Made by a program: the position numbers and the translations under genes
The notes under the pieces: model-generated
The model's database searches: none
What the model saw: only the letters and a program-made list of their open reading frames with translations
Told to the model about the DNA's origin: nothing
Shown: positions 1 to 15,762 of the stretch, in pieces
How the letters are laid out: each line of letters opens with the position of its first letter
Numbering within the stretch: the stretch's first letter is position 1
Virus record (IMG/VR): IMGVR_UViG_3300025030_000131
Span: 1-55,529 of that record
DNA length: 55,529 nt
DNA from: a virus
Taxonomy: Duplodnaviria; Caudoviricetes
Strand: one strand, 5' to 3'

Positions 1-113
1 GTTCGCTCCGTGATCCGCACGGTGCTGAATGACTTGATACGGAAATTGGACTCCCGCCCCATTGGGAGTTCGGACTCCACCAGTGATTTGAAGGCCATTC
101 TGGAAACAGTGCC
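1..113 (+). repeat. Direct repeat, identical to 4204-4316 (3' part of the second copy of the 107-aa gene)
   Basis: Base-by-base identity over 113 bp, then synonymous divergence: both copies end VPRRKRG*. Confidence 0.95.
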
Positions 114-136
114 GCGCAGAAAGAGGGGGTAAGATC

Positions 137-328
137 ATGGCTAAGAAATCAGGTCCAACACCAAAAGGATATGTCAAGGTTCTCATCAATATCCCTATTG
201 CCTATGTTGCCGTGATGAAAGCCAAGAACGCAGAATGTGGCGGGCATTATTCTGTGAGTGAGCAAATCAGAATTGCCATACGCGGACATTTATGCGGATT
301 GATATATATTAGTCTGCTCAAATCATAG
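137..328 (+). CDS. Small basic protein, possible ribbon-helix-helix DNA-binding protein
   Basis: 63 aa; strand VKVLINIP followed by helices (SVSEQIRIAIR); its stop TAG overlaps the GTT at the start of cassette 1. Confidence 0.45.
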   Translation: MAKKSGPTPKGYVKVLINIPIAYVAVMKAKNAECGGHYSVSEQIRIAIRGHLCGLIYISLLKS

Positions 329-431
329 TTCGGCTGACGCTGCGCTCACCCCAAAGTGCGGGGTGGCTTGGTCAGCCGAATGGGCGAGCGTAAGGAACGC
401 AGTAATTCGGCTTGCTAAAAGGAAAAACGAG

Positions 432-689
432 ATGCAAAAATTCATGTGTAATGTATGCGGTAAATTGCATGGCTTGTTCAACGAAGCCGCACTTTGTCAC
501 CCTGACGTGGTAGTAAAAGAATTTCCGGACTTGCCTGACCGCGCCGCCGAACTACTGCGTGCACCCGTCCAATCCGAGCATCCTTGCCCTGATTGCAATG
601 GTGACGGTCTTTGTTTGTATAAAGACGGTATGCAAGAGTGTGTTCGTTGCATGGGGTCGGGCAAGGATAACCGCTCGGATGGCGGGTGA
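432..689 (+). CDS. Cassette 1 gene: Cys-rich protein with two CxxCxGxG motifs
   Basis: RBS AAAAGGA upstream of ATG 432; CNVC, CPDCNGDG and CVRCMGSG motifs. Confidence 0.65.
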   Translation: MQKFMCNVCGKLHGLFNEAALCHPDVVVKEFPDLPDRAAELLRAPVQSEHPCPDCNGDGLCLYKDGMQECVRCMGSGKDNRSDGG

Positions 690-705
690 CGCTCGCCCAT
701 TAGAA
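546..705 (+). other. attC site 1 (long, 160 bp; R' is ATT instead of GTT)
   Basis: GCCGAAC...GCGT[G]CACCCG pairs with CGGGTGACGC (extrahelical base); ATCCGAGC/GCTCGGAT and ATCCTTGCCC/GGGCAAGGAT arms. Confidence 0.75.
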
Positions 706-718
706 AGCCCAGGCCAAC

Positions 719-1513
719 ATGCTTGATAGCCAAGTGAGAAAACCAATTCAAGAAGCCTTTCCCGCCTTACAGTCTGGGCGTGAATTAGTTTGGTTTTCTT
801 GCGGCGCTGCCTCGGCTTGCACGGCAAAATTAGAAGTCGAGAAAAATCCAAACGTGGAGCTTCTCTATTGCAATACTTTGCCCTTTGAGCATCCAGATAA
901 TCCGCGCTTCATGGCCTGTGTTGAAAAATGGACTGGCAAGGAAATCAAGATTTTGCAGTCCGAGAAATACACTGATATTTTCGATGTTTGGCGAAAGCGT
1001 AAATTCATCTTATCTGCGCCTCCTGCGAGAATGGCAATTTGCACAATTGAACTCAAGCGAGCAGTCCGCGAACAGTATCAATCATTTGGCGATGTACACG
1101 CGTTTGGTTTTGGCGTGGATGAACTCGCCAGGATTGCCCGCTTCGAGCGCGATAATCCAGAGATTGCGCTTACATGGCCTTTGCGTGATGCTGGAATGAA
1201 CAAACAGGATTGTCTAAATATGCTCATGCAGGCAGGCATAGAACTTCCTGCCATGTATAAGCTGGGTTATAAAAACAATAATTGCATTGGTTGCGTGAAA
1301 GGCGGTAAAGGATATTGGAACAAAATCAGAGTAGATTTCCCCGAATATTTTTGGAACATGGCGCGATTTGAGCGCGAGATAAACGCCAGAGTTTTCAATG
1401 ATGTCTGGCTTGACGAACTTCCACCTACAGCAGGCCGCTATGAAAGCGAATATGAGATTGAGTGCGGGCCAGTCTGTGGGGCATTTCCAACAACGCGTGC
1501 AGCGGATGGCTGA
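719..1513 (+). CDS. Cassette 2 gene: PAPS reductase-like (adenine nucleotide alpha-hydrolase) phage protein
   Basis: WFSCGAASA PP-loop-like motif, CTIELKR, NNNCIGCVKGGKGYW. Confidence 0.75.
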   Translation: MLDSQVRKPIQEAFPALQSGRELVWFSCGAASACTAKLEVEKNPNVELLYCNTLPFEHPDNPRFMACVEKWTGKEIKILQSEKYTDIFDVWRKRKFILSAPPARMAICTIELKRAVREQYQSFGDVHAFGFGVDELARIARFERDNPEIALTWPLRDAGMNKQDCLNMLMQAGIELPAMYKLGYKNNNCIGCVKGGKGYWNKIRVDFPEYFWNMARFEREINARVFNDVWLDELPPTAGRYESEYEIECGPVCGAFPTTRAADG

Positions 1514-1544
1514 AAAGCGCCACCGCTAACGCTTTCCGTTAGCC
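1485..1544 (+). other. attC site 2
   Basis: TTCCAAC-AACGCGTGCAGCGGA...CCGCTAACGC-TTTCC-GTTAGCC. Confidence 0.85.
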
Positions 1545-1580
1545 GCCCACTGGCTCAACGTGGGAGAAAAGGAAACGACA

Positions 1581-1790
1581 ATGATTGAAGATTTGAATAA
1601 GCGCTTTACCTATCACGCCCCGAAAGAAAACCAGCCGCAGAAGTATGAGAATATCCGCAAGAATGCGCTGGCATTTGCTGAATTGCTGAATGAGATGTGT
1701 CCTGATTCGCGCGAGAAGTCATTAGCAATAACGGCTCTCGAAGAAGCGGTAATGTGGGCAAACGCCTCCATTGCCCGCAATGAGGCATAA
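1581..1790 (+). CDS. Cassette 3 gene A: Acb2/Tad1-like hairpin protein (putative cyclic-nucleotide sponge)
   Basis: FTYHAP...KYENIR...CPDSREKSLAITALEEAVMWANASIAR, recognised as the family pattern; RBS AAAGGA. Confidence 0.65.
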   Translation: MIEDLNKRFTYHAPKENQPQKYENIRKNALAFAELLNEMCPDSREKSLAITALEEAVMWANASIARNEA

Positions 1791-1791
1791 C

Positions 1792-2037
1792 ATGGCGCAG
1801 ATCACCCAAGAAGAATTATCTCGAAAGTTGAACAAAAATGGCTGGGCGTGGCATTTGGTCAGCACCATCACGCCCGGAATTGTGCGTATCCAAATGGCAG
1901 ATGATGGCGAAGAAGAAAGTAATTGGCGCAAATGTGTTGAAGCGCCAACTCTCGAAGAAGCTGTCATGGAAGCGGAGAAATTAGTCAATAGTATCAACGC
2001 TTATGAATATGGGCGCCAAGTCAGTGAGGGCGGCTAA
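1792..2037 (+). CDS. Cassette 3 gene B: hypothetical, paralog of 2146-2415
   Basis: Shared QEEL..L.KNGW.W, TPGIVR.QM and WRKC.EAPTLEEAV blocks. Confidence 0.75.
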   Translation: MAQITQEELSRKLNKNGWAWHLVSTITPGIVRIQMADDGEEESNWRKCVEAPTLEEAVMEAEKLVNSINAYEYGRQVSEGG

Positions 2038-2122
2038 CACAACGTGCAGGCGACTTGGGGCGGGCTGGCGTACTGAAAGCGAAGGTAACGCCGCCCCAAG
2101 CGCCTAACGCAAACCGTTCTAC
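2032..2122 (+). other. attC site 3
   Basis: GGCTAAC-ACAACGTGCAGGCGACTTGGGGCGG...CCGCCCCAAGCGCCTAACGC-AAACC-GTTCTAC. Confidence 0.85.
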
Positions 2123-2145
2123 CGCCTCTTGGCAAAAGGAGAAAC

Positions 2146-2415
2146 ATGGAACAAGAAGAGTTAGATAAACGATTGAAAAAAAATGGCTGGGATTGGTTTT
2201 TATTCTCAAATCTCACGCCTGGCATTGTCCGCTTGCAAATGGGTGCGGAAGTTGAAACGCTCACAGAATGGCGTAAATGTTTTGAAGCACCAACCCTCGA
2301 AGAAGCCGTAATAAATGCGGAAGCGTTTATAAGTCAGATAAGCGCATCCGAATATTACAGGCAGTTGAATCAAGATAGTATCAATCGCGCAACATTACGC
2401 GCGTGGGATTTGTAG
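2146..2415 (+). CDS. Cassette 4 gene: hypothetical, paralog of 1792-2037
   Basis: RBS AAAAGGAGA; clear similarity to the upstream gene. Confidence 0.8.
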   Translation: MEQEELDKRLKKNGWDWFLFSNLTPGIVRLQMGAEVETLTEWRKCFEAPTLEEAVINAEAFISQISASEYYRQLNQDSINRATLRAWDL

Positions 2416-2418
2416 GCG

Positions 2419-2513
2419 GTAGAACAATGCGTGCAGTGGACAAGAACGGGCTGGGCTTTTTGGACAGGTTCTACAAGTCCTCCCGTTCTTGCCACTAACG
2501 CTTGCCGTTGGGC
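2419..2513 (+). other. attC site 4
   Basis: GTAGAAC-AATGCGTGCAGTGGACAAGAACGGG...CCCGTTCTTGCCACTAACGC-TTGCC-GTTGGGC. Confidence 0.85.
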
Positions 2514-2528
2514 TTCTGAGAAAGGTGA

Positions 2529-2756
2529 ATGATGGCAGAGAAAATGATTACCTACTTTGGCGAACCCGCCCGCGTTGCATGTGATGAATTATGCACAAAG
2601 GCATGGGGTATCAATAATCGTCCGAAAGTCGAATTGAGCGACGACGAAGACGATTACGAATATCTCGCAGACAGCGAATTACCCGAAGCACCCGCAGACC
2701 CTGGCACGTATGAAGGCGGGCGCAGGGCGTTTTCAATTCCTGCACCATTGGGGTGA
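2529..2756 (+). pseudogene. Cassette 5 gene, probably 3'-truncated; no downstream attC
   Basis: RBS AAAGGTG; no R'' complementary to GTTGGGC found downstream; sequence appears to switch to an unrelated fragment near 2720. Confidence 0.45.
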
Positions 2757-2932
2757 TTTTGCAACAGACGGTTTTCGCATCCATCTGGACTCCTCCCTCA
2801 CCCGCCGCACGATCAAGGATGTGGAGGCCCCGGACTTCTCCGCCCCCTATGCACTTCCCTCCCCCATCCCAATATTGGGCAGGTTAGGGCTTTGGAACCC
2901 GCCACCGAATATGCAACTTCCATCATCTATTA

Positions 2933-2960
2933 CAAACAGGCTGAAATAAGCCTGTTTTTT
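2933..2960 (+). terminator. Rho-independent terminator closing the cassette array
   Basis: AAACAGGCT-GAAATA-AGCCTGTTT followed by a T tract. Confidence 0.7.
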
Positions 2961-3020
2961 ATTGGGGGAATTTATAGAATATATGTTCTAAATATGATAT
3001 AAGTTGTCCATACAATGGGC

Positions 3021-3048
3021 TTGACTACGCTTCACAACCTGTTATAAT
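3021..3048 (+). promoter_or_regulatory. Sigma70-type promoter
   Basis: TTGACT-16 bp-TATAAT. Confidence 0.55.
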
Positions 3049-3119
3049 TGGGGTTGTAAAGCGTTGGCGTGTAGTTTGACAATAACCCCCAAACATGGAA
3101 AAGAAAAGAGGCTATAAAC

Positions 3120-3560
3120 ATGAAAACAAATGAAATTCCCGCAATTAGAACCGAATCACTTCTCGCTGATGAGTTGAGTGAAAAAAGAATCGGCTACAAA
3201 GTGGTCTGCTCAAAAAATACGAAGTCATTCTCTCCTGCCACGTCATCTGCGCTACAACGTATCACATACCGGCTCCATCGAGAGACCCGTCAGATACGCG
3301 GCGAGTTTGGCCCGTTGGCAGTGTTTGACACGCTCGAACACGCAGAGAGGTTTTTCGTGGATTATGGCGACCACATTCTGCGGGTGGAATATGAACCGTC
3401 GGATGAGGACGAGTTGTGGAAGAAAAACCCGCCATCTTTTGTAAAATCATGGCGCGGCTATTCGGCGCAATCAAATGGCACAAGTGAAAAATCCCTGGAC
3501 ACCTGCCCAGCCGGGACAATACTGGCGTCCTCGGTCTATGTGTTGGAGATCATAAAATGA
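3120..3560 (+). CDS. Hypothetical protein
   Basis: 146-aa ORF with RBS AGAGG; ATGA overlap with the next gene. Confidence 0.7.
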   Translation: MKTNEIPAIRTESLLADELSEKRIGYKVVCSKNTKSFSPATSSALQRITYRLHRETRQIRGEFGPLAVFDTLEHAERFFVDYGDHILRVEYEPSDEDELWKKNPPSFVKSWRGYSAQSNGTSEKSLDTCPAGTILASSVYVLEIIK

Positions 3561-3814
3561 CAATGATTCCACAAATCATAGAACTGTATCTGCGGCTGGA
3601 CGGCGAATTCGCCTCTCATAAATATGAGGAAAGTTATGAGGCGAGCTGGACATGGAAACCCGAGGACATTGCATACCTCGAACAGATCAAAACAATTGAC
3701 GACCTGGGCAACTATGATCACAACAATGATTACCTCTGTGCGCTCGCTTATGACTGTGCCCTTGCGATGGGACTATCAAAGTGGGATGCCATGAGCGTCG
3801 CTAACGATCACTAA
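3557..3814 (+). CDS. Hypothetical protein
   Basis: 85-aa ORF translationally coupled to the upstream gene. Confidence 0.65.
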   Translation: MTMIPQIIELYLRLDGEFASHKYEESYEASWTWKPEDIAYLEQIKTIDDLGNYDHNNDYLCALAYDCALAMGLSKWDAMSVANDH

Positions 3815-3891
3815 TACATGGAACAGAAAAGAGGAAATAGACAATGCCTAGAACAAGACAATTAGTTCCCTGAAAGAGGTCAAAAAAAAGG

Positions 3892-4008
3892 ATGCCCGAA
3901 GGTGCTAATTCCATCATGGACATTGGGGCTGGGGATGGCAGGGTGCTGAAATGGCTGGCGGAAAAAAGCAGGGATGTAAAACCGTGTATAATCAACCCAG
4001 GAGCATAA
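3892..4008 (+). pseudogene. Remnant of a SAM-dependent methyltransferase
   Basis: Translates to MPEGANSIMDIGAGDGRVLKW (motif I), then runs into the repeat that starts at 3970. Confidence 0.5.
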
Positions 4009-4316
4009 CCCATGAAAAAAACGAAACCAACCACCCCCAACCCATCCACCCTGAAATCGCGCCGGCGCTATCTGCTTCTGGATGCCGTGGCACGCCGGGT
4101 CCTGAATGACTCTAACGTATCGTGGTCGTCCGTGGGATCGGAGTTTACCGGCAGACTCCTCCCCGCCAAAGGCGACACCCTATCCACCATCACGGAGAAG
4201 GAAGTTCGCTCCGTGATCCGCACGGTGCTGAATGACTTGATACGGAAATTGGACTCCCGCCCCATTGGGAGTTCGGACTCCACCAGTGATTTGAAGGCCA
4301 TTCTGGAAACAGTGCC
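3970..4316 (+). repeat. Full copy of the ~347-bp direct repeat (promoter-like TATAAT, RBS and most of the 107-aa gene)
   Basis: 3970-4069 equals 55430-55529; 4204-4316 equals 1-113. Confidence 0.95.
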
Positions 4317-4335
4317 CCGAAGGAAAAGGGGATAA
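4012..4335 (+). CDS. Hypothetical basic protein (duplicated early gene)
   Basis: RBS AGGAG; TGTATAAT upstream; the second copy keeps the C-terminal peptide through synonymous codons. Confidence 0.8.
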   Translation: MKKTKPTTPNPSTLKSRRRYLLLDAVARRVLNDSNVSWSSVGSEFTGRLLPAKGDTLSTITEKEVRSVIRTVLNDLIRKLDSRPIGSSDSTSDLKAILETVPRRKRG

Positions 4336-4384
4336 ACAAGATTAGGGTATCGTGGCACAATCAGCCACGCCTAAAAGGAGAAAC

Positions 4385-4618
4385 ATGGAACAACTTACCA
4401 AGTCAGTCGAAAGAAATTGCCATCACAACAACACGGTGGTTTATAGCCGCATGATCTCGCGTGCCACACGCGAAGAGCCAGCCGAATATTTAGAGTGGGG
4501 AATTTGCAAGGACTGTGGCAAGCTGCTGGACTATTCCGATATTCCTAGCGACGCTGAAATCACAGATGGCGACAACGAACCATCAATACGCGGAATGCCT
4601 AGTGAGTTTTATGATTGA
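4385..4618 (+). CDS. Hypothetical protein with a CxxC motif
   Basis: RBS AAAAGGAG; CKDCG. Confidence 0.65.
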   Translation: MEQLTKSVERNCHHNNTVVYSRMISRATREEPAEYLEWGICKDCGKLLDYSDIPSDAEITDGDNEPSIRGMPSEFYD

Positions 4619-4828
4619 GCGCCACCGGACAAGAATCCGCACCCTCGTAAAATACCAACGGCCCCGCATGGAACGGGGCCGTTGGTGTTTCTGGAACTCA
4701 CCCTGATATGGGAGTCGGGAGGGCAGGCTAGGGGGGGTAGCCTGCCCTCCCTTCTTTATTTTATGCGGATTGGTGTATTTGTCAAGAGTTTGGCAAGGGA
4801 ATGCGCCGTCTGAGTAGTTGCACAACCC

Positions 4829-4857
4829 TTGACATATTAGAAAATCCATACTAAAAT
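4829..4857 (+). promoter_or_regulatory. Sigma70-type promoter
   Basis: TTGACA-17 bp-TAAAAT. Confidence 0.6.
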
Positions 4858-4888
4858 CATTCCATAGTAACGACCTATATCCTAACTC

Positions 4889-5269
4889 ATGGAAAAGAAG
4901 GATGAAATGACAAAAACAAAAAACACAGGACGTGGCATATCCACCCGTAAGCGGGAAATCCGCGACGCTCTCATGGGTAAAAAAACCGAAACTCAAATCA
5001 TGCTTGGTGAAATTAAGATAATGATGGGGGGTGGCACATTGGAATATCATACTTGGTTTGATCGTACATATAAACTTCGTGCCGCAGGGGATCAGGAAAA
5101 GTACGAGCAGGTGATCCGCAGGAAATACCTGTACCTGCTGAAAAAGACTCAAGTCCCATCCCCTGCCCCACTTCCAATAACTGACCACCTCCCACCCCTG
5201 ACTGCATCCAATGTCCTGAGTGATTGGATGTGCGCCAACTGGCATTTGATCCCGGAAGTGAGCTTCTAA
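4889..5269 (+). CDS. Hypothetical protein
   Basis: ORF downstream of the promoter; TAATG coupling to the next gene. Confidence 0.65.
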   Translation: MEKKDEMTKTKNTGRGISTRKREIRDALMGKKTETQIMLGEIKIMMGGGTLEYHTWFDRTYKLRAAGDQEKYEQVIRRKYLYLLKKTQVPSPAPLPITDHLPPLTASNVLSDWMCANWHLIPEVSF

Positions 5270-6477
5270 TGGCACTCGATCACACTTCCATCAGCCCTGA
5301 CCTGACTTTCAGGCAGTCCGAGATCGATCCCGTTATCCGTGATTATGTCTGCGCCGTCTGTCATCTCGACCTGGCTGTTCAATACATCCCCAACCATGAG
5401 CGGGTATTCATCGTTTGCCCCGATCATGGGAATGTCTGCCTAAGCGGTCGCGTCATGCGCTCCACGGTCTCGATCCAGATGGAAAACTCCGTCCGTGATT
5501 ATTACACCATGTTATCCGCTCTCCCCGACCTGTTTGGCAATATCTGGATGAACGGCATCCCTCGCGACCAGGCCTCTCGGATCGCGCATGTGTCTGTTTG
5601 CGCCCTGTGCGGGAGTCCTCTGGCTATGCAGTGTATTTGGGATGAGGATAAGCGTAAGATCCTGCCCGATATAGTCAGCCTGATGTGTTCCTACTCGCAT
5701 GGCAATGTTGGCCTGAACGGGATTGGATTCGTCCATCAATCGGATTACATTTTCGTCCCGCCCGTTGAGATACGCAGGGTAGAAAGACTCCGCCGGGATC
5801 TTCCCCAAAAACAACCATTGGATTTTAGCAAGCATCCGAAGTCTGCCGCCTTTGAAAAATTGGGCGTAATTTCCTTTGGGAACGGGCTGGAGTCCAACAG
5901 GAATGGCTCTGACCATTTTCGGGTGATGGTATCCAACAGAAACTACCCTACCCTGGCGAAACAATTCGGAAAGGAACTCGCCCGGCTCACTGTCCGACTC
6001 CCATCCCCCTCCATCACTGCGTCCCTGCACACGTCTTTGGAGTGCTACCGCAAAGGAGCCATGATCGCAAAGGCTGTCCGTGTCGAGGATGGGTCGTTTC
6101 GGTGGGAATATTACAGGGACCCGGATACACATGAGATTGACATTCGGGGCGGCCGCTCCCTCACTTTGGCCGGCCTGAGAATGTCCAATAAAGGCGTTGA
6201 TCTGGATGTGCCCATTTATAAAGACTCGAAGGGCGAGGGTCATCCCCTGCAACGTGTGGCGCGTATGCGCCTGGTCATCCCGGAACTGGCTGAGTTGAAT
6301 GGATCGCCCGTTACCGGGTATTTTGAAATGTCATTCAAGGACGATGATACAACCGTTATTGAGGAAGGAGTCCGTATTGCAAAACAACAAGGGAATACCG
6401 AGGGGTTGATGTTGAACGAAACACCCCTGACCCTATCCCTGAGGGATGGGCGGGTATATATTCAAAAAGGAGAATAA
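5269..6477 (+). CDS. Hypothetical: duplicated Zn-ribbon N-terminus; C-terminus possibly Gp3-like recombination directionality factor
   Basis: CAVC..CPDHG and CALC..CSYSHG repeats; KLGVI..DHFRV..LTVRLP pattern (weak). Confidence 0.5.
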   Translation: MALDHTSISPDLTFRQSEIDPVIRDYVCAVCHLDLAVQYIPNHERVFIVCPDHGNVCLSGRVMRSTVSIQMENSVRDYYTMLSALPDLFGNIWMNGIPRDQASRIAHVSVCALCGSPLAMQCIWDEDKRKILPDIVSLMCSYSHGNVGLNGIGFVHQSDYIFVPPVEIRRVERLRRDLPQKQPLDFSKHPKSAAFEKLGVISFGNGLESNRNGSDHFRVMVSNRNYPTLAKQFGKELARLTVRLPSPSITASLHTSLECYRKGAMIAKAVRVEDGSFRWEYYRDPDTHEIDIRGGRSLTLAGLRMSNKGVDLDVPIYKDSKGEGHPLQRVARMRLVIPELAELNGSPVTGYFEMSFKDDDTTVIEEGVRIAKQQGNTEGLMLNETPLTLSLRDGRVYIQKGE

Positions 6478-6478
6478 C

Positions 6479-6673
6479 ATGCCACAATCTCACACAGAGA
6501 CCAGAAACGGGATCACCGCCACCGTCTGGCCGTCCCCATTCAGCGCAGCCCAATGGTGCATTATCGTCACCAAAGGCGGCAATATGCTCACCGATACAGT
6601 GAGTGCGTCTGATCAAACAGACGCGGTAAACCTGGCTTTTGAAAAAGGGATTGAGCAGGGAATAGGAGAATAA
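6479..6673 (+). CDS. Hypothetical protein
   Basis: RBS AAAAGGAGA. Confidence 0.6.
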   Translation: MPQSHTETRNGITATVWPSPFSAAQWCIIVTKGGNMLTDTVSASDQTDAVNLAFEKGIEQGIGE

Positions 6674-6674
6674 A

Positions 6675-7871
6675 ATGACTGACATAACCGTTATAGACGA
6701 ATTGGTATCAAAAAGGGACGCGGCGCGGAAGGAAGAAACCGCATCGAAGGAACAACGCACAGCACAGGCACAGGAGTCGATTGCCAACGATGCGCGGGAT
6801 GAAATCGGGAAGGACGGCCTGGGCTGGCTTCTGGATTATGGAAGGGAGTTGTTATCCGTGGACAGTAAAGGGAATGGGGTTTTTGAGTGGACTCTCTCCC
6901 CGAAAGGGATAAGGGAATTGAATATTTGCCCGGTCCAGATTGTGGCAGAAAGGCCTTTCGGCTGGCGGGCGGACTTTCGTTCGAATGAGGGCGTTCCCTT
7001 CCTATCCCTTCGCTTCGAGGTATTAAATTCAAATGGGATTTTCTCAACCATCCAAAATAAAGACGAGTGGTTGACCCGCGCCAGGGATGAGTATCAGCAC
7101 TATAACTCTCTCGTGGAGTATGAGGCGGCCCGGAAACTGACCGTCGAGGATGGGTATCCATTCAATGCGTACTATAACGAGGATGAGGAAAAGGCACGCC
7201 TGCATTATGAAAAACTATGCCAGACCGCGCCTGGCATGATGGAGTCGTGGGATAAGGAATACAAGGAATATCAGAAAGAGATCAATAAGATCAAGACCGA
7301 TAAACAGAAGACGGCCGAAGAGGAGTCCGCTCATCAGAAAGTGAAAGACTCCTATCGCAAGGCGTGGGGGGAATACAAAGCGGCTGCCCTCGCTGTCTAT
7401 GCCCACAATGAGAAGATTATCCAGGAGGCACAGGCGGAATTTCGAAAGACGGCCACTCTCTACGAATTGACTTATGGAGTCGTGGCCCTCGATGCGGATG
7501 AGAAATATGTCGAGACCCGTACCGTGTGGGTAAAGACGATGGGCACAAAGGAAGGCATGTTCACCCTGCTGGATGGGGACATTATCAAGTATCACCATCC
7601 CATATCCCTCCGCAAGGTCGAGGCCGGCACGGAGGATGGAGCCAGTTATGTCCACACGTTCTATCTGGCTGAAAATCCAAACGGAGTCCCTGGTTACAAC
7701 GCCCGCATACAATACCTGTTCGGGATCACCACCGAGGAGATGATCCGGGAATCCTTGACGGCCAGGGGCTTGAAGGAATATCCCGCCCAACCGGATAAGC
7801 CGGATGAATTGCAATGGTTCGAGGCGGAATTGATTCAGGGCGAGAAGTCCGAGGTTGAAGATGATCGATAA
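6675..7871 (+). CDS. Hypothetical coiled-coil-rich protein
   Basis: 398-aa ORF, RBS AGGAGA. Confidence 0.75.
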   Translation: MTDITVIDELVSKRDAARKEETASKEQRTAQAQESIANDARDEIGKDGLGWLLDYGRELLSVDSKGNGVFEWTLSPKGIRELNICPVQIVAERPFGWRADFRSNEGVPFLSLRFEVLNSNGIFSTIQNKDEWLTRARDEYQHYNSLVEYEAARKLTVEDGYPFNAYYNEDEEKARLHYEKLCQTAPGMMESWDKEYKEYQKEINKIKTDKQKTAEEESAHQKVKDSYRKAWGEYKAAALAVYAHNEKIIQEAQAEFRKTATLYELTYGVVALDADEKYVETRTVWVKTMGTKEGMFTLLDGDIIKYHHPISLRKVEAGTEDGASYVHTFYLAENPNGVPGYNARIQYLFGITTEEMIRESLTARGLKEYPAQPDKPDELQWFEAELIQGEKSEVEDDR

Positions 7872-8154
7872 GAAAAAGACTCCCCGCCCCTATTATGACC
7901 TGGCCCGGCTCGTTGCGATATACCGGGCTGTGGAAGAGTACAGGCAACAGCATGGGGGGGACAACCCCTCCATGCTGGATATTGTGAAGTTGGGACTGGC
8001 ATCCACGCCGGGAATGGTGTCTTATTATTACAGGCACATGCAGCGCATGGGGATGATAGGGCGCACCTTCCATCGATCCCGATCCGTACAGCTTCGCCCT
8101 TTGGAGGAAGCGGATCCGGCTATTTTGGAACATTTGAAAAAGGAAAAGGAATAA
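7861..8154 (+). CDS. LexA N-terminal-like winged HTH protein
   Basis: IYRAVEEYRQQHGGDNPSMLDI..LGLAST..V.YY..M...G.I.R pattern. Confidence 0.65.
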   Translation: MIDKKKTPRPYYDLARLVAIYRAVEEYRQQHGGDNPSMLDIVKLGLASTPGMVSYYYRHMQRMGMIGRTFHRSRSVQLRPLEEADPAILEHLKKEKE

Positions 8155-8157
8155 AAC

Positions 8158-8481
8158 ATGGCTACAATTAATTGGAATATGTCGAAACACGAATTTGAAT
8201 TGATCCTTAAGATAGCAGTTCGTGCCAGGGAACTAACAAAGGATACGGAAATTCACGCCAGGAAAGATACTCTTGAAATGGATGTCGCAGCCTGTCACCT
8301 GAATGGTTGCCCACTGCGATTGCAGGAGTTATTGGATGCCGACAATGGAAACTTTGCCCATGACGTATTTGGCATCCAAAAATATATTGACCGCAAGACC
8401 GGGAAGTTGATGGACTGTTTCGATCCCCGTTACTCTGTCCCGGAGAATGCGGTTGAGGAGGTATCCAATGAAAAAGTTTAA
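8158..8481 (+). CDS. Conserved phage hypothetical protein (DUF6874-like)
   Basis: MDVAACHLNGCPLRLQELLDAD..NFAHDVFGI..YIDRKTGKL.DCF.PRY. Confidence 0.65.
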   Translation: MATINWNMSKHEFELILKIAVRARELTKDTEIHARKDTLEMDVAACHLNGCPLRLQELLDADNGNFAHDVFGIQKYIDRKTGKLMDCFDPRYSVPENAVEEVSNEKV

Positions 8482-8622
8482 GGCCGTTTGGGTGGACGGG
8501 GATGGTAAGGTTGTCCTGGGCGTATTGACCAATCTTGTGAACGCAGGGGATGAGGCGCGTTCCAAGTCGGCTATGGGTTTTTTGGCCTGGGTGCAGGATG
8601 AGGAAAATAATAAGGTGGAGAT

Positions 8623-8814
8623 ATGATCCAGCCCATACGTCCCGACCCGGACGAGGAAAAAGCCGTCGAAATAGGTACTTACAAGGGATACACCTTGATC
8701 CTGACCAGCAAGGAGCGCATCCTTGTATTGATCTATGATTTGACGTATCCCGCCTATACCCTGCCGGATGCCAAGAAGCTGGTGGATGATCTTATGGATT
8801 CTCGCAAGAATTGA
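8623..8814 (+). CDS. Hypothetical protein
   Basis: RBS GGAGA. Confidence 0.55.
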   Translation: MIQPIRPDPDEEKAVEIGTYKGYTLILTSKERILVLIYDLTYPAYTLPDAKKLVDDLMDSRKN

Positions 8815-8822
8815 AATGGGGG

Positions 8823-8851
8823 TTGCAAATTTTTTCTTTCACCTGTATAAT
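8823..8851 (+). promoter_or_regulatory. Sigma70-type promoter
   Basis: TTGCAA-17 bp-TATAAT. Confidence 0.6.
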
Positions 8852-8883
8852 CCCTGTTGGATGCAGTGACAGAAATGTCACTA

Positions 8884-8917
8884 CCAACCGGGATCCTATA
8901 TCTCGGTTGGTTTTTTT
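8884..8917 (+). terminator. Rho-independent terminator
   Basis: ACCAACCGGGAT...ATCTCGGTTGGT followed by a T tract. Confidence 0.7.
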
Positions 8918-8993
8918 ATTGACACAATCAGCCAAGTCGTGATAGGATAGCAGGCATAATACATATAGCATCCACTATATAGGAGATTAGATC

Positions 8994-11984
8994 ATGATAG
9001 CAATACCCGACCTGCAATGGTCAACAGCCAAAGAAATTCAAACAAAAAACGGTCCGCGCATGTTGCGAACCGCTGAGCCTACCCCCGATTTTTGGGAGTC
9101 CTGGCGCTCAAACAAAGATGCTCTTAAATTATTGGGAGTATCCTGTTCGCGCGATGAACGCTCCGGCGAATGGAAAATATGCTGGTGGCAGGAACTTACC
9201 GCCGAAACAAAACAGGAGCGCGCCGCATCGGTAGAGGCGTCGCGTGCCGTAAACGCAGAAATCGAACTTCCAAAACCGGATGGGCTGGATTACATGCCTT
9301 TCCAACGTGCCGGTATACGATATGCGCTTGATCGCCAAAATGTTCTAATTGCCGACGAAATGGGACTCGGTAAAACCGTAGAGACAATCGGCATTATCAA
9401 TGCAGACCCAGCCATTGCCAGCGTAGTTATTGTTTGCCCCAAATCCCTAAAGCTCAACTGGAAAAGGGAACTGGAAAAATGGCTTACCCGCCCGCTTTCG
9501 ATTGGTGTGGTAAACAATTCATGGCTCGCCTCAGATATTGTCATTCTGAACTATGAAGCGACTGGTAAATTTTCTGAACAACTCAAGGCGCATGAGTGGG
9601 ATGCGGTGATTGTAGATGAATGTTTTGTTGGAAATACTCTAATCGAAACCATCGAGGGTTCATGTCAAATAAAAGATTTACACCCTGGTATGCGCGTTGC
9701 GTCCTTCAATTTTTCAAGTAATGCGGTGGAATACAAAAAGATTTTGTATGTGAATCATCGACCAGCACCAAATATTTTATACAAAGTGGCTGGAAATGTA
9801 AGCACAGGCAACCATCCATATTATACAGAGGAGAGCGGTTATGTTAAGGCAAAGGAAATCTGTGGAAAGACTGTGCGAGCGTTGCGAAGTGTTATTTACA
9901 ACCCCGTCAAAGGGGAAGAATACCGCACGTTTTTGTTCGAGGAGATGCGTCAATATGGGAAACTCGTACGGCAAGAAACAAGTGCACAAAACGTACACGG
10001 CGACATGTCAGGAATGCGGGAAGGAGTTTATTCGAAGGGTTTTTGGACTCAGGTTTTGCAGTACGTATTGTTCTGCAATTTGGAGAGTAAGAACCATTAT
10101 CCATCCAGCCAAAAAGAACCCCAGCACTTTTCGAGAAAAAATTTCGAGCGGATTGAAAAGGGCTCATCACGAACGTCCTGGGTGGGCAAAAGAATCATCG
10201 AGGCGGATGAAAGAAAACAATCCAATGCTCAACGCCGACGCGCGCGAAAAAATGAAACAATCACTGACCGGGCGTACGTTTTTGGCGCGGGGAGGAAACG
10301 GAACGATTACGAGCCAACAAAAGAAACTTTTGAGCGCATTAGGATGGAGCGAGGATTGGTTAGAATATCCAATCAAGACGGCTTTAGCAAGCAAGAAATT
10401 CAAATCGCTTCCGAATTGCTACAAGGTGGACATAGCCAGCCCGAAACACAAATTAGCCATAGAGGTAGATGGCAAAACTCACAAACTGAAAAAATGGAAT
10501 TTTCTGGACAAACGAAAGACGGAGATTTTGAATTATTTAGGGTGGACGGTATTGAGATTTACGAACGAGGAAGTGGATCAGAATTTGAGCAGGTGTGCTC
10601 AGACGGTTTTGTCTACAATATCGAAGTAGAGGACAATAACAACTATTTTGCAAATGGAATATTAGTCCATAATTGTCACTACATCAAAAACAGCAAGGCA
10701 CAGCGCTCTAAAAATGTAAAATCAATACCATCACGCAGAAAAATCAGATTGACCGGGACACCAATCGTCAATAGGCCGATTGAACTTTATAACATCATAG
10801 AAGATTTACATAATGGTTTTGGTTCGTTTTTCTCGTTTGCCAAACGCTATGCCGGCGCACACAAAAATGGCTTCGGTTGGGACTTCTCAGGTGCTCAAAA
10901 TCTGGATGAACTGCAAAAACGATTACGAGAAACAATCATGGTGCGCCGTTTGAAAAAGGATGTACTCACAGAACTCCCACGGAAAATCCGTCAGATTGTG
11001 GAGGTGGAAGCCGACACTCCCGCCGCAAAACGGGCGGTAAAATCAGAACAGACTCATGAATCTGCGTCCGAAGAGAGACTGTCAAATCTCCGCGTATCTG
11101 TTGAGTTAAGCAAGGCGGAATCAGAGGATGCGTATAAATCAGCAGTTGCACGCTTGACAGAGGCGTCGCAGGTTGATTTTACTGAAATGGCCCGCTTGCG
11201 CCACGATACTGCTATGGCAAAAGTTCCCGCTGTGATAGCGCATATTACAAACGCGCTGGATGACAATGACAACAAAATTATTGTCGCCATCCACCACCAC
11301 GATGTAGCCGCCGCGCTTATGGATGGCCTGGCAGAGTTCTTTCCGGTTATTTTGACTGGCGAAAATAGCGAACAGGAACGAACTGCATCAGTGGACTCAT
11401 TTCAAAACGATCCGAAGGTGCGCGTGTTTATCGGCTCGATCACTGCCGCAGGAGTTGGGATCACCCTGACAGCTTCCTCGCATGTAGTGTTTGCCGAATT
11501 AGACTGGGTGCCGGGGAATATCTCGCAAATGGAGGATCGCGCTCATCGTATTGGTCAAACCGAAACGGTACTGGTGCAGCATATCGTATTATCCGATAGC
11601 CTGGATGCACGGATGGCAAATGCGATTATTTCAAAACAAAATGTGATAGACAATGCGCTTGATATTAACCATCCCGAACGCTCCGCGCCGGTGTATGAGC
11701 CAAAAAATAAAAGCGCATCTCATGGAGCGTCAGTATCCGAAATAGAGAAAATTGCAGAGACATTATCAACCGAACAATGTGCAATGATACATAATCAATT
11801 GCGTTATCTCGCCGGCATGGATGCCGACCACGCCAGCAGCTTGAATGGAATTGGATTCAACAAAATAGATACGCAGATTGGTCATGACCTGGCCGGGCGT
11901 GAGTGGCTTACTCCTAAACAGGCTGCGCTTGGAATTAAAATCTGTAAGAAATACCATAAACAGTTGATTGATTGGAAGGCATAA
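8994..11984 (+). CDS. SNF2/HARP-family helicase, intein-containing
   Basis: ADEMGLGKT (motif I), DE|CH (motif II, split by the intein), LTGTPIVN, MVRRLKKDVL, QMEDRAHRIGQ; RBS AGGAGA. Confidence 0.92.
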   Translation: MIAIPDLQWSTAKEIQTKNGPRMLRTAEPTPDFWESWRSNKDALKLLGVSCSRDERSGEWKICWWQELTAETKQERAASVEASRAVNAEIELPKPDGLDYMPFQRAGIRYALDRQNVLIADEMGLGKTVETIGIINADPAIASVVIVCPKSLKLNWKRELEKWLTRPLSIGVVNNSWLASDIVILNYEATGKFSEQLKAHEWDAVIVDECFVGNTLIETIEGSCQIKDLHPGMRVASFNFSSNAVEYKKILYVNHRPAPNILYKVAGNVSTGNHPYYTEESGYVKAKEICGKTVRALRSVIYNPVKGEEYRTFLFEEMRQYGKLVRQETSAQNVHGDMSGMREGVYSKGFWTQVLQYVLFCNLESKNHYPSSQKEPQHFSRKNFERIEKGSSRTSWVGKRIIEADERKQSNAQRRRARKNETITDRAYVFGAGRKRNDYEPTKETFERIRMERGLVRISNQDGFSKQEIQIASELLQGGHSQPETQISHRGRWQNSQTEKMEFSGQTKDGDFELFRVDGIEIYERGSGSEFEQVCSDGFVYNIEVEDNNNYFANGILVHNCHYIKNSKAQRSKNVKSIPSRRKIRLTGTPIVNRPIELYNIIEDLHNGFGSFFSFAKRYAGAHKNGFGWDFSGAQNLDELQKRLRETIMVRRLKKDVLTELPRKIRQIVEVEADTPAAKRAVKSEQTHESASEERLSNLRVSVELSKAESEDAYKSAVARLTEASQVDFTEMARLRHDTAMAKVPAVIAHITNALDDNDNKIIVAIHHHDVAAALMDGLAEFFPVILTGENSEQERTASVDSFQNDPKVRVFIGSITAAGVGITLTASSHVVFAELDWVPGNISQMEDRAHRIGQTETVLVQHIVLSDSLDARMANAIISKQNVIDNALDINHPERSAPVYEPKNKSASHGASVSEIEKIAETLSTEQCAMIHNQLRYLAGMDADHASSLNGIGFNKIDTQIGHDLAGREWLTPKQAALGIKICKKYHKQLIDWKA
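9621..10673 (+). mobile_element. Intein (351 aa) inserted in the DECH motif
   Basis: Block A CFVGNTLIET, block B STGNHPYYT, blocks F/G VYNIEVEDNNNYFANGILVHN, +1 residue Cys. Confidence 0.92.
9841..10629 (+). CDS. Zn-finger + DUF559/Vsr-like endonuclease nested in the +1 frame of the intein
   Basis: CERC/FCSRRC and CQEC/FCSTYC motifs; YKVDIA...LAIEVDGKTH...DKRKTEILNYLGWTVLRFTNEEV; RBS GAGGAG at ~9827-9832. Confidence 0.85.
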   Translation: MLRQRKSVERLCERCEVLFTTPSKGKNTARFCSRRCVNMGNSYGKKQVHKTYTATCQECGKEFIRRVFGLRFCSTYCSAIWRVRTIIHPAKKNPSTFREKISSGLKRAHHERPGWAKESSRRMKENNPMLNADAREKMKQSLTGRTFLARGGNGTITSQQKKLLSALGWSEDWLEYPIKTALASKKFKSLPNCYKVDIASPKHKLAIEVDGKTHKLKKWNFLDKRKTEILNYLGWTVLRFTNEEVDQNLSRCAQTVLSTISK

Positions 11985-11986
11985 AG

Positions 11987-12790
11987 ATGAAACTTTCAGA
12001 ATTTCTGTCAGATGTTGGTCGCCCTGTCGCGTTTTATCCAACCCTGGTGAAAGCCTTTGGGGATCGAAATGAGGCGATATTTATTTGCCAAATGGCCTAT
12101 TGGCGCGGCAAAGGTGAAAGTGAGGATGGCTGGATTTATAAAACTTCCGACGAAATAGAGGCCGAAACATCACTAACATATAAAGAACAAACCAACGTCA
12201 GAAACGGGCTGAAAAAGAAAGAATTGCTCAAGGAAAAACACGTCCGCACCGAGCATAAAATGTATTTTCGGGTCGATTGGGATAAGGTAAATTCTTTGTG
12301 GGGGCAGTTTACCGATGGTAAGGTGGTGCATATTACCAAAAGTAAACTGCCACCCTCCCCAAAGAAGGGTGGCAGTTTACCCGTTGGCATTTCGTTAAAT
12401 AGTAATACAGAGAATACAGCAGAGAATACAACAAAGATTAAAACCAGCGTGGAGAAACCCGCAAAACCACCGACACCGCCCGAAGTAAAGCTATTCCGGG
12501 AGGCGACTGGCCGATACCCCGCAAGATCATCATTTACAACCGTTGTAGATGCCATCCAAAAAATAGGAAAACGTCTGGGGCGGGATGTGATTTGTGATGA
12601 TCTCAAACCATTTTTGACAGATTGGACTGACCGTGGGTGGAATCCAATGAATCTAGCATGGTTGAAGGAATGGGCAGTAATTGGCTCGATTCCGACAAAT
12701 GGAAAGAAACCTGCTTTCCAACTGCGGGAGTCCGCGAACCGCGCCGCCCTTGCTACAATGAAATTTGACGATGAAGGGAATCTAATCTAA
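11987..12790 (+). CDS. Phage replication initiator (N-terminal winged HTH)
   Basis: RPVAFYP...AIFICQMAYW...GWIYKTSDEIEAETSLT..EQ..VR..L. Confidence 0.7.
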   Translation: MKLSEFLSDVGRPVAFYPTLVKAFGDRNEAIFICQMAYWRGKGESEDGWIYKTSDEIEAETSLTYKEQTNVRNGLKKKELLKEKHVRTEHKMYFRVDWDKVNSLWGQFTDGKVVHITKSKLPPSPKKGGSLPVGISLNSNTENTAENTTKIKTSVEKPAKPPTPPEVKLFREATGRYPARSSFTTVVDAIQKIGKRLGRDVICDDLKPFLTDWTDRGWNPMNLAWLKEWAVIGSIPTNGKKPAFQLRESANRAALATMKFDDEGNLI

Positions 12791-13449
12791 TGGCAACGCA
12801 AAATAAAATAAGGGATTTGCTAAACACGCTTGTTTCCCTGCCTAATGCCCCTGAGATCAGCGCGGATGTTGTACGGGAATATCATGCCGTTTTGGGGCAC
12901 TGGCCGGATGAACTGCTGGATATGGCCGTTCTGCATTACAAAAGTTCTGAGGTCTTTTTTCCCACCCCCGGCACTCTGAACAATAAGATACTCGATCTGC
13001 AATTCATGGCGATGGGCATCCCCACTGCGGCGGAAGCCTGGAGTCAGGTCTTGGGCGCGGTTAGGCAAGTCCCGACTGTGCTTTGTGAAACTGGCTCACA
13101 ATTACGAACGGCAGCCGAGGGCAGGATAGGCGGCGAATACATGAGCGCAATTGCGGATTATTCCATCCACTTCCGAAACTGCGAAATATGCACAGATGGC
13201 GGATGGAAGGAAATCTACGACCACCCGGTGGTTGCTGAAACGGTGCGACTGCTTGGGGGACGGGATATGCTGCTAACCGACAACCTGGCCGCAGATCGTA
13301 AGCAGTTCATTGACGCCTACCGCGAACGGGTTCAGATCGAGGGTCGCAAGTTTATTATGCCCCCGAAGATCAGGGATTTTATCGCAGACCAGCGCTTACT
13401 TGAGGTCGGCGATCAGGTAAAACAATTGGCGAAAGGAATGTCCAAATGA
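12790..13449 (+). CDS. Putative replicative helicase loader/inhibitor-like protein
   Basis: Coupled to the initiator; FFPTPG and PTAAEAWSQV motifs. Confidence 0.55.
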   Translation: MATQNKIRDLLNTLVSLPNAPEISADVVREYHAVLGHWPDELLDMAVLHYKSSEVFFPTPGTLNNKILDLQFMAMGIPTAAEAWSQVLGAVRQVPTVLCETGSQLRTAAEGRIGGEYMSAIADYSIHFRNCEICTDGGWKEIYDHPVVAETVRLLGGRDMLLTDNLAADRKQFIDAYRERVQIEGRKFIMPPKIRDFIADQRLLEVGDQVKQLAKGMSK

Positions 13450-13706
13450 GCGAACCCGTACCTGTATTGATTGCCCGTAAACACCTGCTTGAAAAGCAGG
13501 AAAGCGATAACCCTGACAAGGATTATTCGGCTGATTGGCTTGAACTGGCCGGCCTGTTTGATGAGGTTGAGAGTCGGGTTAATGCCCACTATTGCAGGAT
13601 CAAGGCTGGCGTAATCCAGAAGGCGAAACCCAAGAGGGAATCCCCCGTCAGGGATCAGGGAGAATTTGACTGGCAGAGTCGGGCAGATATTGGGGATGCT
13701 GAATGA
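13446..13706 (+). CDS. Hypothetical protein
   Basis: ATGA overlap with the upstream gene. Confidence 0.6.
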   Translation: MSEPVPVLIARKHLLEKQESDNPDKDYSADWLELAGLFDEVESRVNAHYCRIKAGVIQKAKPKRESPVRDQGEFDWQSRADIGDAE

Positions 13707-13873
13707 GTACAATGATATTCCGACCTGAGGTTAGAGATGGATTGTGCCGTGCGGCGATCATGCTGGCACGCGAGAGAAGTAATACTATCTACACGATTAC
13801 GACGACCCAGTTGGTAAATAATCTAATCCACGTTAGCAATACGGCTGACGAATAAAAAAATAGGAGATACACA

Positions 13874-14074
13874 ATGACCACAGTAAACAACACCAACGGC
13901 AAGGCAATTGATTTCGAAGCGGCATTCAATTTGATGGATGACGAAATCTGCGAAACTCTTGCAAACGATGGCAATGAGCGAACCGAGCAGGAATTTTTCT
14001 CGGCTTACGAGAAAGCCCACGAAGCAAAATACGGCGAAGAGTGGGAGCTCAGCAAAGCAAATCCTGTCTGGTAA
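13874..14074 (+). CDS. Small acidic hypothetical protein
   Basis: RBS AGGAGA; 66 aa. Confidence 0.7.
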   Translation: MTTVNNTNGKAIDFEAAFNLMDDEICETLANDGNERTEQEFFSAYEKAHEAKYGEEWELSKANPVW

Positions 14075-14433: not shown

Positions 14434-15762
14434 ATGAAACAAATAACATCGTTGTCAACCGAGCGAGTTGCGAGGTTCCGGGAGTTTGTAGATAAGTGGA
14501 CACACCTCGGATTGTCCACCAAGCCGGCTAACCACCCAGGGGCTGAGGACGCTCTGCGAAGGGCGTATCAAGTGGCCGGCCTGACACCTCCAAAATTTAT
14601 TGTGTGGATGAAAAGCCCGCGCGACGCAGTCTTGGCATGGGCTTTGATCTTGTCCTGGATAGTTGACGACCAAGTGAGCGACCAAGTGAGCGCCCAAGTG
14701 ATCGACCAAGTGCGCGCCCAAGTGATCGACCAAGTGCGCGACCAAGTGAGCGACCAAGTGAGCGACCAAGTGCGCGCCCAAGTGAGCGCCCAAGTGAGCG
14801 CCCAAGTGCGCGACCAAGTGCGCGCCCAAGTGCGCGCCCAAGTGATCGACCAAGTGCGCGACCAAGTGAGCGACCAAGTGAGCGACCAAGTGCGCGCCCA
14901 AGTGAGCGACCAAGTGCGCGCCCAAGTGCGCGACCAAGTGATCGACCAAGTGATCGACCAAGTGATCGACCAAGTGATCGACCAAGTGATCGACCAAGTG
15001 AGCGACCAAGTGTTCGCCCAAGTGAGCGACCAAGTGATCGACCAAGTGATCGACCAAGTGATCGACCAAGTGATCGACCAAGTGCGCGCCCAAGTGAGCG
15101 ACTATATCCAACAACGCTGGTGGTGGACCGGCTGGGGCAATCAGGAATGGTGGTTGTCCTGGATCGATTACTTCGGCTCCGCCGTTGGAATATCGGCAGA
15201 AAAAATCCATCCATTACTTGATCTCGCAGAACACGGCCATTGGTATTGGCCGATGCAGGGTATCGCCGTGATGTGTGAAAGACCTTTGGCTATTCGGCGC
15301 GACGGACGCGGAAGATTGCATTGCGACGATGGACCGGCAGTGGAGTACGAAGGCTGGACGATCTATGCCGTGGATGGAATGGGGATCCCTGATTGGATCG
15401 TGGAGTGTAAGGACCAGATCACACCTGAACGCATCAACGCCGAAAAAAACGCGGAAATTCGCAGGATCATGATGCGCTTCTATGGTTGGGATCGCTGGCT
15501 GGAAAACGTCAAGGCGAAACTTATTGACCGGGATCCAGACCCCACCATTGGGGAGTTGTGGTCATTCAAAGACGTGGATGGTGTGACCGTGAAAATACTT
15601 AAGGTTCGTAATGGCACAAGGGAAGTAGACGGATACCGCAGCTTTTCTTTGCGCGTGGACTCGGATTGCGAGACTGCACTCAAGGCAAACAGGTGGACAT
15701 ATCCTTCCTGTCGTCAAATGTCGGAGCAAGATTACCGTATTCTAAATTCTGCAAGATCATAA
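14434..15762 (+). CDS. DUF6745-like phage protein with a central tetrapeptide repeat
   Basis: N-terminal AYQVAGLTPP.FIVW.SP; C-terminal GRLHCDDGPA..Y.GW..YAVDG and NAEIRRIM. Confidence 0.75.
   Translation: MKQITSLSTERVARFREFVDKWTHLGLSTKPANHPGAEDALRRAYQVAGLTPPKFIVWMKSPRDAVLAWALILSWIVDDQVSDQVSAQVIDQVRAQVIDQVRDQVSDQVSDQVRAQVSAQVSAQVRDQVRAQVRAQVIDQVRDQVSDQVSDQVRAQVSDQVRAQVRDQVIDQVIDQVIDQVIDQVIDQVSDQVFAQVSDQVIDQVIDQVIDQVIDQVRAQVSDYIQQRWWWTGWGNQEWWLSWIDYFGSAVGISAEKIHPLLDLAEHGHWYWPMQGIAVMCERPLAIRRDGRGRLHCDDGPAVEYEGWTIYAVDGMGIPDWIVECKDQITPERINAEKNAEIRRIMMRFYGWDRWLENVKAKLIDRDPDPTIGELWSFKDVDGVTVKILKVRNGTREVDGYRSFSLRVDSDCETALKANRWTYPSCRQMSEQDYRILNSARS
14668..15099 (+). repeat. 36 x 12-bp coding tandem repeat G(A/C)CCAAGTG(AGC/ATC/CGC/TTC)
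   Basis: Directly visible; encodes (D/A)QV(S/I/R/F). Confidence 0.95.

Follow-up and report, generated by a model that had tools for sequence, protein, structure and literature searches.

In the 55,529-nucleotide (nt) IMG/VR virus record IMGVR_UViG_3300025030_000131, which was analysed over its full length and is called the window below, a series of small genes separated by hairpins that resemble the attC sites of integrons lies close to the start of the record. The phage was sampled from groundwater, and the record is classed as linear, with a CheckV completeness of 93%. Family searches find genes for a portal protein, a large terminase, a head protein, an endolysin, a helicase and a ParB-methyltransferase in it, and the record is therefore that of a tailed phage. 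The array occupies positions 328-2510 and contains four attC-type sites in the same orientation, all on the plus strand, at 550-701, 1489-1540, 2036-2118 and 2423-2509. With regular expressions applied to both strands of the whole window, paired half-motifs appear only at 550/684, 1489/1524, 2036/2102 and 2423/2493, and no pair of left and right half-motifs occurs elsewhere on either strand. A first-pass annotation of the letters had proposed four attC hairpins here, and all four lie within 4 nt of these sites. The array holds four cassettes, possibly five, each of which ends in an attC-type site.

Cassette 1 (406-699, plus strand, as are all the others) contains an open reading frame (ORF) at 432-689 for a small, Cys-rich protein of 85 amino acids, the second half of which is encoded inside site 1. 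The protein has weak matches to phrog_31357 and phrog_3931, and a single Zn_Ribbon_1 match was obtained among 35 scanned cassette ORFs. By eye, several phage sites hold the 3′ end of a cassette ORF in their variable loop, often with Cys motifs of the CxxC type (561-688 in the window, and 9165-9312 in L009, 5838-5970 in L004 and 6889-7021 in L007, three of the other phage loci discussed below). Cassette 2 (700-1538) carries a gene at 719-1513 that resembles those for 3′-phosphoadenosine-5′-phosphosulfate (PAPS) reductase (phrog_424, E-value 5e-41). Cassette 3 (1539-2116) carries two genes. The product of the first (1581-1790) matches PF24729 (Acb2_Tad1_hairpin) over residues 10-66 of its 69, with an E-value of 2.1e-23 and 82.7 bits against a cut-off of 27, and a match to phrog_1454 (E-value 1.8e-29) was also found in this cassette; it is thus a predicted member of the Acb2/Tad1 family of nucleotide sponges. 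The second gene (1792-2037) encodes a small protein, paralog A, that is 55% identical to paralog B, the product of the gene at 2146-2415 in cassette 4 (2117-2507). In a protein atlas, paralog B has scores of 0.87 to unnamed viral clusters only, at most a lead. The PAPS-reductase-like, Acb2/Tad1-like and paralogous genes had been named as such in the first-pass annotation, and the family searches and alignments agree with it. According to the ORF list, no ORF in the window crosses a G|TT junction.

The four sites share one layout, which consists of an R′′ box ending in AAC, a 5-nt spacer, a stem beginning with GTGCA, a variable loop, the returning stem ending in TAAC, a 7-nt spacer (GC and five further nt), and G|TT, where the bar marks the predicted crossover. 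Sites 2-4 carry AAC together with GTT; in site 1, AAC is accompanied by ATT. The right halves end in this (G/A)TT triplet in register, at 699-701, 1538-1540, 2116-2118 and 2507-2509. The spacers of 5 and 7 nt are mostly non-complementary, and the inner loop is so variable that the sites range from 52 to 152 nt in length. The R-box consensus of attC sites is RYYYAAC/GTTRRRY, to which the R′ heptamers conform in part (GTTGGGC does, GTTCTAC does not), as is expected for chimeric sites. In DNA folds, the R′′/L′′ arm, with its two extra bases, bears one bulged base and one asymmetric loop, which matches the pattern of extra-helical bases of attC sites as laid out in the legend to figure 2 of Cury et al. 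2016 (PMC4889954). Folding of the bottom strands as single-stranded DNA, one of the checks that the first-pass annotation had proposed, supports site 1 (-39.4 kcal/mol, z = -4.37), site 3 (z = -3.63) and site 4 (z = -3.43); site 2 is taken up below.

The left end of the array is less regular. A junction at G328|T329 is followed by a 77-nt stretch without an ORF (328-405, plus strand), which is possibly a ‘cassette 0’; its first 10 nt (329-338) complement 371-380, and the resulting hairpin has a DNA fold of -21.7 kcal/mol (z = -3.81). This stretch overlaps a mini site at 379-411 (plus strand) with the layout AAT-6-GCGT-5-ACGC-4-A|TT, which repeats the outer boxes of site 1 in inverted form and has no long stem. 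The mini site is complementary to 546-560 (14/15) and to 689-701 (13/13), and may be a mini-cassette without an ORF or a scar. Neither 328-405 nor 379-411 receives a score from the covariance model described below. The hairpin at 329-381, just before the mini site, bears the same R-box heptamer.

In arrays of integron cassettes, sites should be chimeric, with the R′′ arm of each pairing with the start of its own cassette several hundred nt upstream. Such complementarity had been claimed for cassettes 3 and 4 of the window, and it is exact in both. The cassette 4 start, GTTCTACCGCCT at 2116-2127, complements 2414-2425 at 12 of 12 positions, and the cassette 3 start, GTTAGCCGCCC at 1538-1548, complements 2028-2038 at 11 of 11, or 9 of 10 beyond the triplet. 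The agreement is weaker for cassette 2 (6/10), and in cassette 1 it consists of six contiguous bases. The bases after each window site's own GTT pair poorly with its R′′ (3-5 of 10). We measured this relation more broadly by setting the 10 nt that lie beyond AAC in one site against the first 10 nt that follow GTT in the site before it, for 42 sites in eight phage loci (38 hits in the phage loci and the four window sites, with one partial hit and weaker hits excluded). Adjacent pairs (n = 34) are complementary at a mean of 7.06 of 10 positions, against 4.17 for a site's own downstream sequence (n = 42) and 4.23 for the remaining pairings (n = 1688). Scores of only 2-4 are seen in three of the 34, where a site between the two has probably gone undetected. 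Pairing between R′′ and the cassette start is expected only if the cassette once was a circle in whose folded site the two ends were paired, so that the complementarity reads as the footprint of circular cassettes joined at G|TT, that is, of the integron mechanism.

The same kind of site is also found outside the window. With a stricter pattern, five other IMG/VR contigs contain clusters of two to five sites each by regular expression. A search of one genome per species with the most frequent right-hand 17-mer gave at least 120 loci; among the matches listed (120 loci with the core 17-mer), 70 have titles naming Chloroflexota, mostly Anaerolineales, Anaerolineae or Anaerolineaceae, and many of the loci hold arrays of 5-10 sites on the same strand. 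We built a covariance model, R1, from an alignment of 115 bacterial sites, most of them from Anaerolineae, with no phage site among them. The training set includes arrays next to true integron integrases (IntI), and its sites were fetched with the 17-mer and a regular expression derived from the phage sites. With filters off, R1 finds site 3 (matched at 2028-2128, 65 bits, E-value 2.8e-15), site 4, the last in the array (2415-2519, 54.1 bits, 1.6e-12), and the short, 52-nt site 2 (1481-1550, 46.1 bits, 1.8e-10) in the window. This family-specific model scores site 1 weakly (542-711, 10.6 bits, E-value 0.18, where the next best window match has 0.88). The R1 matches, taken with the Chloroflexota titles of the 17-mer loci, indicate that the window sites are members of the attC family found in chromosomal integrons of Anaerolineae (Chloroflexota). 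In three of five array-bearing genomes, the integron-integrase model TIGR02249 scores 438-470 bits (cut-off 265). In genomes G007 and G009, IntI adjoins the array and is divergent from it, which is the classical integron layout, and by eye the arrays of both show the same G|TT chimerism. One Anaerolineales genome with arrays, G006, has only IntI fragments (G006:C3:475509-475916; 82 bits, a 92-amino-acid frame, and a TGA inside the second fragment), which may be an integrase pseudogene.

Arrays of this family are not peculiar to the window among phages. R1 gives 39 matches at an E-value of at most 1e-3 in the first seven phage loci, 12 of them within 5.2 kb of L007, a locus of G004. The latter record is complete at 38.4 kb, ends in terminal repeats, encodes a terminase and contains these 12 sites, with no IntI above the cut-off. 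When a 14-mer was used to choose 100 more viral loci, R1 matched 25 of them at an E-value of at most 1e-4, and 21 have two or more matches; the 14-mer scan is unspecific by itself (mostly single chance matches) and is useful only after R1 scoring. The phage-borne sites are shorter and more varied than bacterial sites of the same family, with a median of 102 against 121 nt, and 9 of 99 against 1 of 164 below 70 nt, figures to be read with the caveat that the two sets were collected differently. We scanned 35 cassette ORFs for families (29 from other loci and six from the window, with eight short ORFs excluded and one longer ORF added by hand). The majority match no family; the others comprise two N6_N4 methylases, two Dam proteins, three PAPS reductases by PHROG (two by Pfam), one Acb2 and one zinc ribbon. 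Orphan DNA methyltransferases are an additional cargo in the arrays of sister phages. When cassette proteins were compared with bacterial loci, the only matches besides a PAPS reductase in L077 were distant methyltransferases and one short match (an ORF of L003 to L037). L077 is a 2.6-kb contig binned with a Candidate Phyla Radiation genome, and the evidence is not enough for a claim that phages and hosts share cassettes.

The PAPS-reductase gene illustrates how a cassette can occur in different surroundings. It recurs in L003, L007 and L077 with 69-79% amino-acid identity. At the nucleotide level, the homology to L007 is confined to window positions 682-1540, which align with L007 3159-3994; it begins within the conserved core of the site before the cassette and does not go past the R′ triplet, and the neighbours of the cassette differ among the window, L003 and L007. 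The first-pass annotation had called for a comparison of related phages, and to this extent the comparison bears it out. A 598-nt contig from X5, another sample in another study, is equivalent to window 324-703 and continues with 218 nt of unrelated DNA that bears its own ribosome-binding site and ATG. The point of departure lies 2-4 nt beyond the predicted A699|T700 crossover, since both sequences have the common TTAG there, and the contig so carries another cassette behind site 1. Further contigs from X5 diverge from the window at 2136, and join it at 2423 and 316. In X5, X7 and X9, contigs cover several parts of the array thinly or not at all, and no conclusion is drawn from these gaps. Short contig matches at 1687-1720 and 1740-1774 were set aside as the Acb2-like genes of other organisms, not parts of this array. 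The phage GenBank collection yielded only PAPS-reductase matches (74-76% identity) and no relative of the locus.

These comparisons bear on the possibility that the array is a passive relic, captured once from a host integron, whether in one block or through one IntI event at a secondary site, and now only drifting or decaying. Site 1 is degenerate, the left end at 328-411 looks scarred, neither circles nor deletion joints are seen in the contigs, and the phage lacks an integrase, all of which a relic would account for. On the other hand, the complementarity between R′′ and the cassette start still extends over 11-12 nt in cassettes 3 and 4 and holds across the 34 pairs, the X5 contig has another cassette after site 1, the PAPS cassette stands between different neighbours in three phages, and sites of the family are present in a quarter of the further viral loci sampled. 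We therefore regard a relic as unlikely, though it deserves more weight than the explanations that follow.

The cassettes could also have been exchanged by homologous recombination, with the 14-17-nt cores serving as microhomology between co-infecting phages and IntI playing no role in the phage. The core comprising L′, spacer and R′ is indeed nearly identical in many sites, and crossovers inside it would also place boundaries near the site. Such a process leaves unexplained why R′′ should complement the start of its own cassette, several hundred nt away (7.06 versus 4.2 of 10), as such pairing has a role only when an excised circle folds its site. Nor does it explain the conserved bulges and the covariation of the stems. 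In 99 phage-borne sites, whose alignment was fitted to the structure of the model, 93.6% of cells are paired, against 67.2% in shuffles (none of 500 reaches the observed value), double changes number 325 against 97.6 in shuffles, and slid controls pair at 28-41%. Homologous recombination as the sole agent thus appears improbable.

The identity of the recombinase is a further question. In the whole record, the best match to TIGR02249, in the protein encoded at 43871-44803, has 27.9 bits, far below the cut-off of 265, in agreement with the earlier claim that no IntI is present. None of 11 phage records tested has an IntI above the cut-off (best score 28 bits). The only tyrosine recombinase of the record, at 43871-44803 on the minus strand, scores 119 bits with the Xer model NF040815 (cut-off 220) and 40 bits with TIGR02249, and lacks about 30 residues, the IntI-specific insertion, that are common to three Anaerolineae IntI proteins. 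The first-pass annotation had noted the lack of this insertion, and by its sequence the protein is best classified as Xer-like rather than as an integron integrase. As the sole tyrosine recombinase in the record and a distant relative of IntI, it could in principle recombine the sites itself. Apart from the missing insertion, what speaks against this is that eight of the ten other array-bearing phage records, including the complete G004 with its 12 sites, have no match to the IntI model, which also detects Xer-type recombinases. We consider a role of this enzyme in the array very improbable. A complete integron would have intI with the insertion next to attI and the array, whereas here the only genomes in which IntI turned up are bacterial ones that have sites of the same family. 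What the record contains is three strong sites and one weak site within 2 kb and no intI, which is the arrangement called a cluster of attC sites without an integron integrase (CALIN).

Finally, the array sits within a 3.8-kb module (133-3969) flanked by two copies of a 366-nt unit that consists of a leader and a gene for 107 amino acids. In a repeat scan, the terminal 100 nt of the record (55430-55529) are identical to 3970-4069, and positions 1-132 are 96% identical to 4204-4335; the second copy accordingly occupies 3970-4335 on the plus strand, and the first spans the record ends (55430-55529 and 1-132). A contig from X7, another sample in another study with an independent assembly, joins 3970-4203 straight to window 1-375. 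Given the terminal repeats and this bridge from 4203 to 1, the record is circularly permuted and cut inside the first copy of the unit. An assembly chimera, in which a bacterial integron fragment was mis-joined to phage DNA at such a repeat, where assemblers can err, is hardly credible in view of the independent X7 join, of a single contig from X1 (which may be the source sample) that covers 84-3999, and of the fact that same-family arrays also lie within phage records that are complete and have terminal repeats.

Taken together, we consider it probable, with good confidence, that 328-2510 represents a genuine array of integron cassettes that lacks an integrase (a CALIN) in a tailed phage, and that it was built, and is probably still serviced, by the IntI of a host. 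This is in essence the interpretation of the first-pass annotation, that of a borrowed host integrase, and it is supported in every part that can be tested on sequence. Several observations weigh against it. The fold of the 52-nt site 2 is not better than those of shuffles (z = -1.1). Site 1 is degenerate, with A|TT for G|TT and TGAC for TAAC, and lies wholly inside the ORF at 432-689. Neither cassette-skipping joints nor circle junctions were seen in the assembled contigs, which drop rare forms. Searches with two proteins gave no close relative of the phage in which the locus could be compared. The 417-amino-acid neighbour protein found no related locus, and the helicase found one 70% relative, in L267, which by tblastn shares no other gene with window 1-14000. 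(L267 has a single site of the same family at 5133-5233 on the minus strand, with 46.6 bits, on the strand opposite to the helicase gene.) Furthermore, R1 is family-specific, a test of kinship to the integron sites of Anaerolineae and not of attC sites at large, and two of the five array-bearing genomes have no IntI above the TIGR02249 cut-off. The predicted host, an integron-bearing bacterium of the Anaerolineae type, has the site family as its single line of evidence; a search of five Anaerolineae genomes with the phage portal protein gave no match, an empty result that tells nothing either way.

If the array is indeed serviced by a host integrase, its history might be as follows. Host IntI would work in trans, on phage DNA folded as single strands while the phage replicates or is lysogenic. 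A first cassette would have been planted by it at a secondary site, seeding the array, and the same enzyme may still insert, excise and swap cassettes. The cassettes would be transcribed together with upstream phage genes, as an operon ending at a terminator-like hairpin at 2934-2957 that was found in a terminator scan. Between the array and this hairpin lies the first gene after the array (2529-2756, plus strand, from the ORF list), for which no Pfam or PHROG family was found. A promoter scan gave 8 sites, where 5.9 +/- 2.1 are expected by chance, and named no Pc-like promoter. The cassettes could supply the phage with accessory and counter-defence functions, such as the Acb2-like nucleotide sponge, the PAPS reductase and, in sister arrays, the orphan DNA methyltransferases.

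Some other features of the record are noted here. The same 21 bases, comprising a ribosome-binding site and the first codons, occur at 2134-2154, ahead of the cassette 4 gene, and at 4373-4393, ahead of the gene that follows the second of the two 107-amino-acid gene copies. Within the ORF at 14434-15762, about 35 head-to-tail copies of a 12-nt unit (14571-15134) encode a tetrapeptide-repeat protein. A 93-nt direct repeat with 90% identity (26459-26551 and 27030-27122, 571 nt apart) lies in a region of minus-strand genes. The 422-amino-acid protein encoded at 53977-55245 (minus strand) matches the DNA methyltransferase family phrog_498 (E-value 3e-84) and has an additional ParB-like N-terminal part.

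Beyond this one phage, we tentatively suggest, as a possibility we hold at slightly below even, that phages of Anaerolineae keep such arrays as a common pool from which accessory and counter-defence genes can be exchanged, and which host integron integrases service in trans. Integrons are now viewed as banks of bacterial anti-phage defence (10.1101/2024.07.02.601686, 10.1101/2024.07.02.601719), and if the suggestion is true, the integron would serve both sides of the arms race. Cassettes could then move from phage to phage, and perhaps from phage to host, at G|TT, which would provide a concrete mechanism for the fast turnover of phage accessory genes. The attC type could become a host-range marker for uncultured phages, allowing them to be assigned by sequence to integron-bearing hosts. 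Since each cassette is a small, self-contained unit, the arrays would also be a compact source of candidate anti-defence genes.

Several known systems resemble the array in part. In T4-type phages, promoter/stem-loop cassettes mediate modular shuffling via homologous recombination. Like these, the window has repeated intergenic hairpins that bound small, swappable early genes; unlike them, its sites have integron R and L boxes, show G|TT chimerism and have relatives in bacterial integrons. With the sedentary integrons and CALINs of bacteria, as described by Cury et al. 2016 (PMC4889954), where Chloroflexi are listed among the phyla with integrons, the array shares R and L boxes, unpaired spacers, a variable terminal structure, chimeric sites and co-oriented cassettes without promoters. 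It differs from them in that it lies in a virus, in that phage-borne sites are shorter and more varied than same-family bacterial ones, and in its phage-type cargo. The proposed route has a counterpart in the work of Loot et al. (10.1101/2022.09.11.507474), who describe how IntI1 inserts cassettes at genomic positions other than att sites (attG), so that promoters in the vicinity can express them. An integrase encoded elsewhere can by this route plant cassettes outside an integron, as proposed for the phage, where the left junction at G328|T329 might be such a site. Insertion at attG was shown there for bacterial chromosomes with IntI1, and not for phage DNA or Anaerolineae.

The closest known system is that of Qi et al. 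2023 (PMC9892861), who had reported 17 CALINs in phages, virulent ones included, saw IntI1 recombine five of six phage attC sites with attI1, and described methyltransferase cassettes in phage CALINs. Earlier reports of attC sites in phages had been mentioned in the first-pass annotation, and this work is one; phage CALINs are thus already known, and the window array adds to them. A limited literature search, which did not extend to supplements, found no paper on Acb2 in an attC cassette or on arrays in Anaerolineae phages. Like the CALINs described by Qi et al., the array has at least two co-oriented attC sites with cassettes, no intI and some counter-defence cargo (orphan DNA methyltransferases in their case). 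Unlike them, it comes from an uncultured phage, and its sites are tied to the Anaerolineae integron family. Its sister phages have much larger arrays (12 sites in a 38-kb genome), its cargo includes an Acb2-like sponge, and G|TT chimerism is demonstrated here statistically. What is new, then, is the matching of phage sites to the integron family of one host clade, the size and frequency of the arrays in uncultured phages, the statistical proof of chimerism and the Acb2-like sponge as cargo. With 25 of 100 further loci containing sites of the family, the range of phage CALINs grows from a handful of phages in culture to include a considerable number of viral contigs from the environment.

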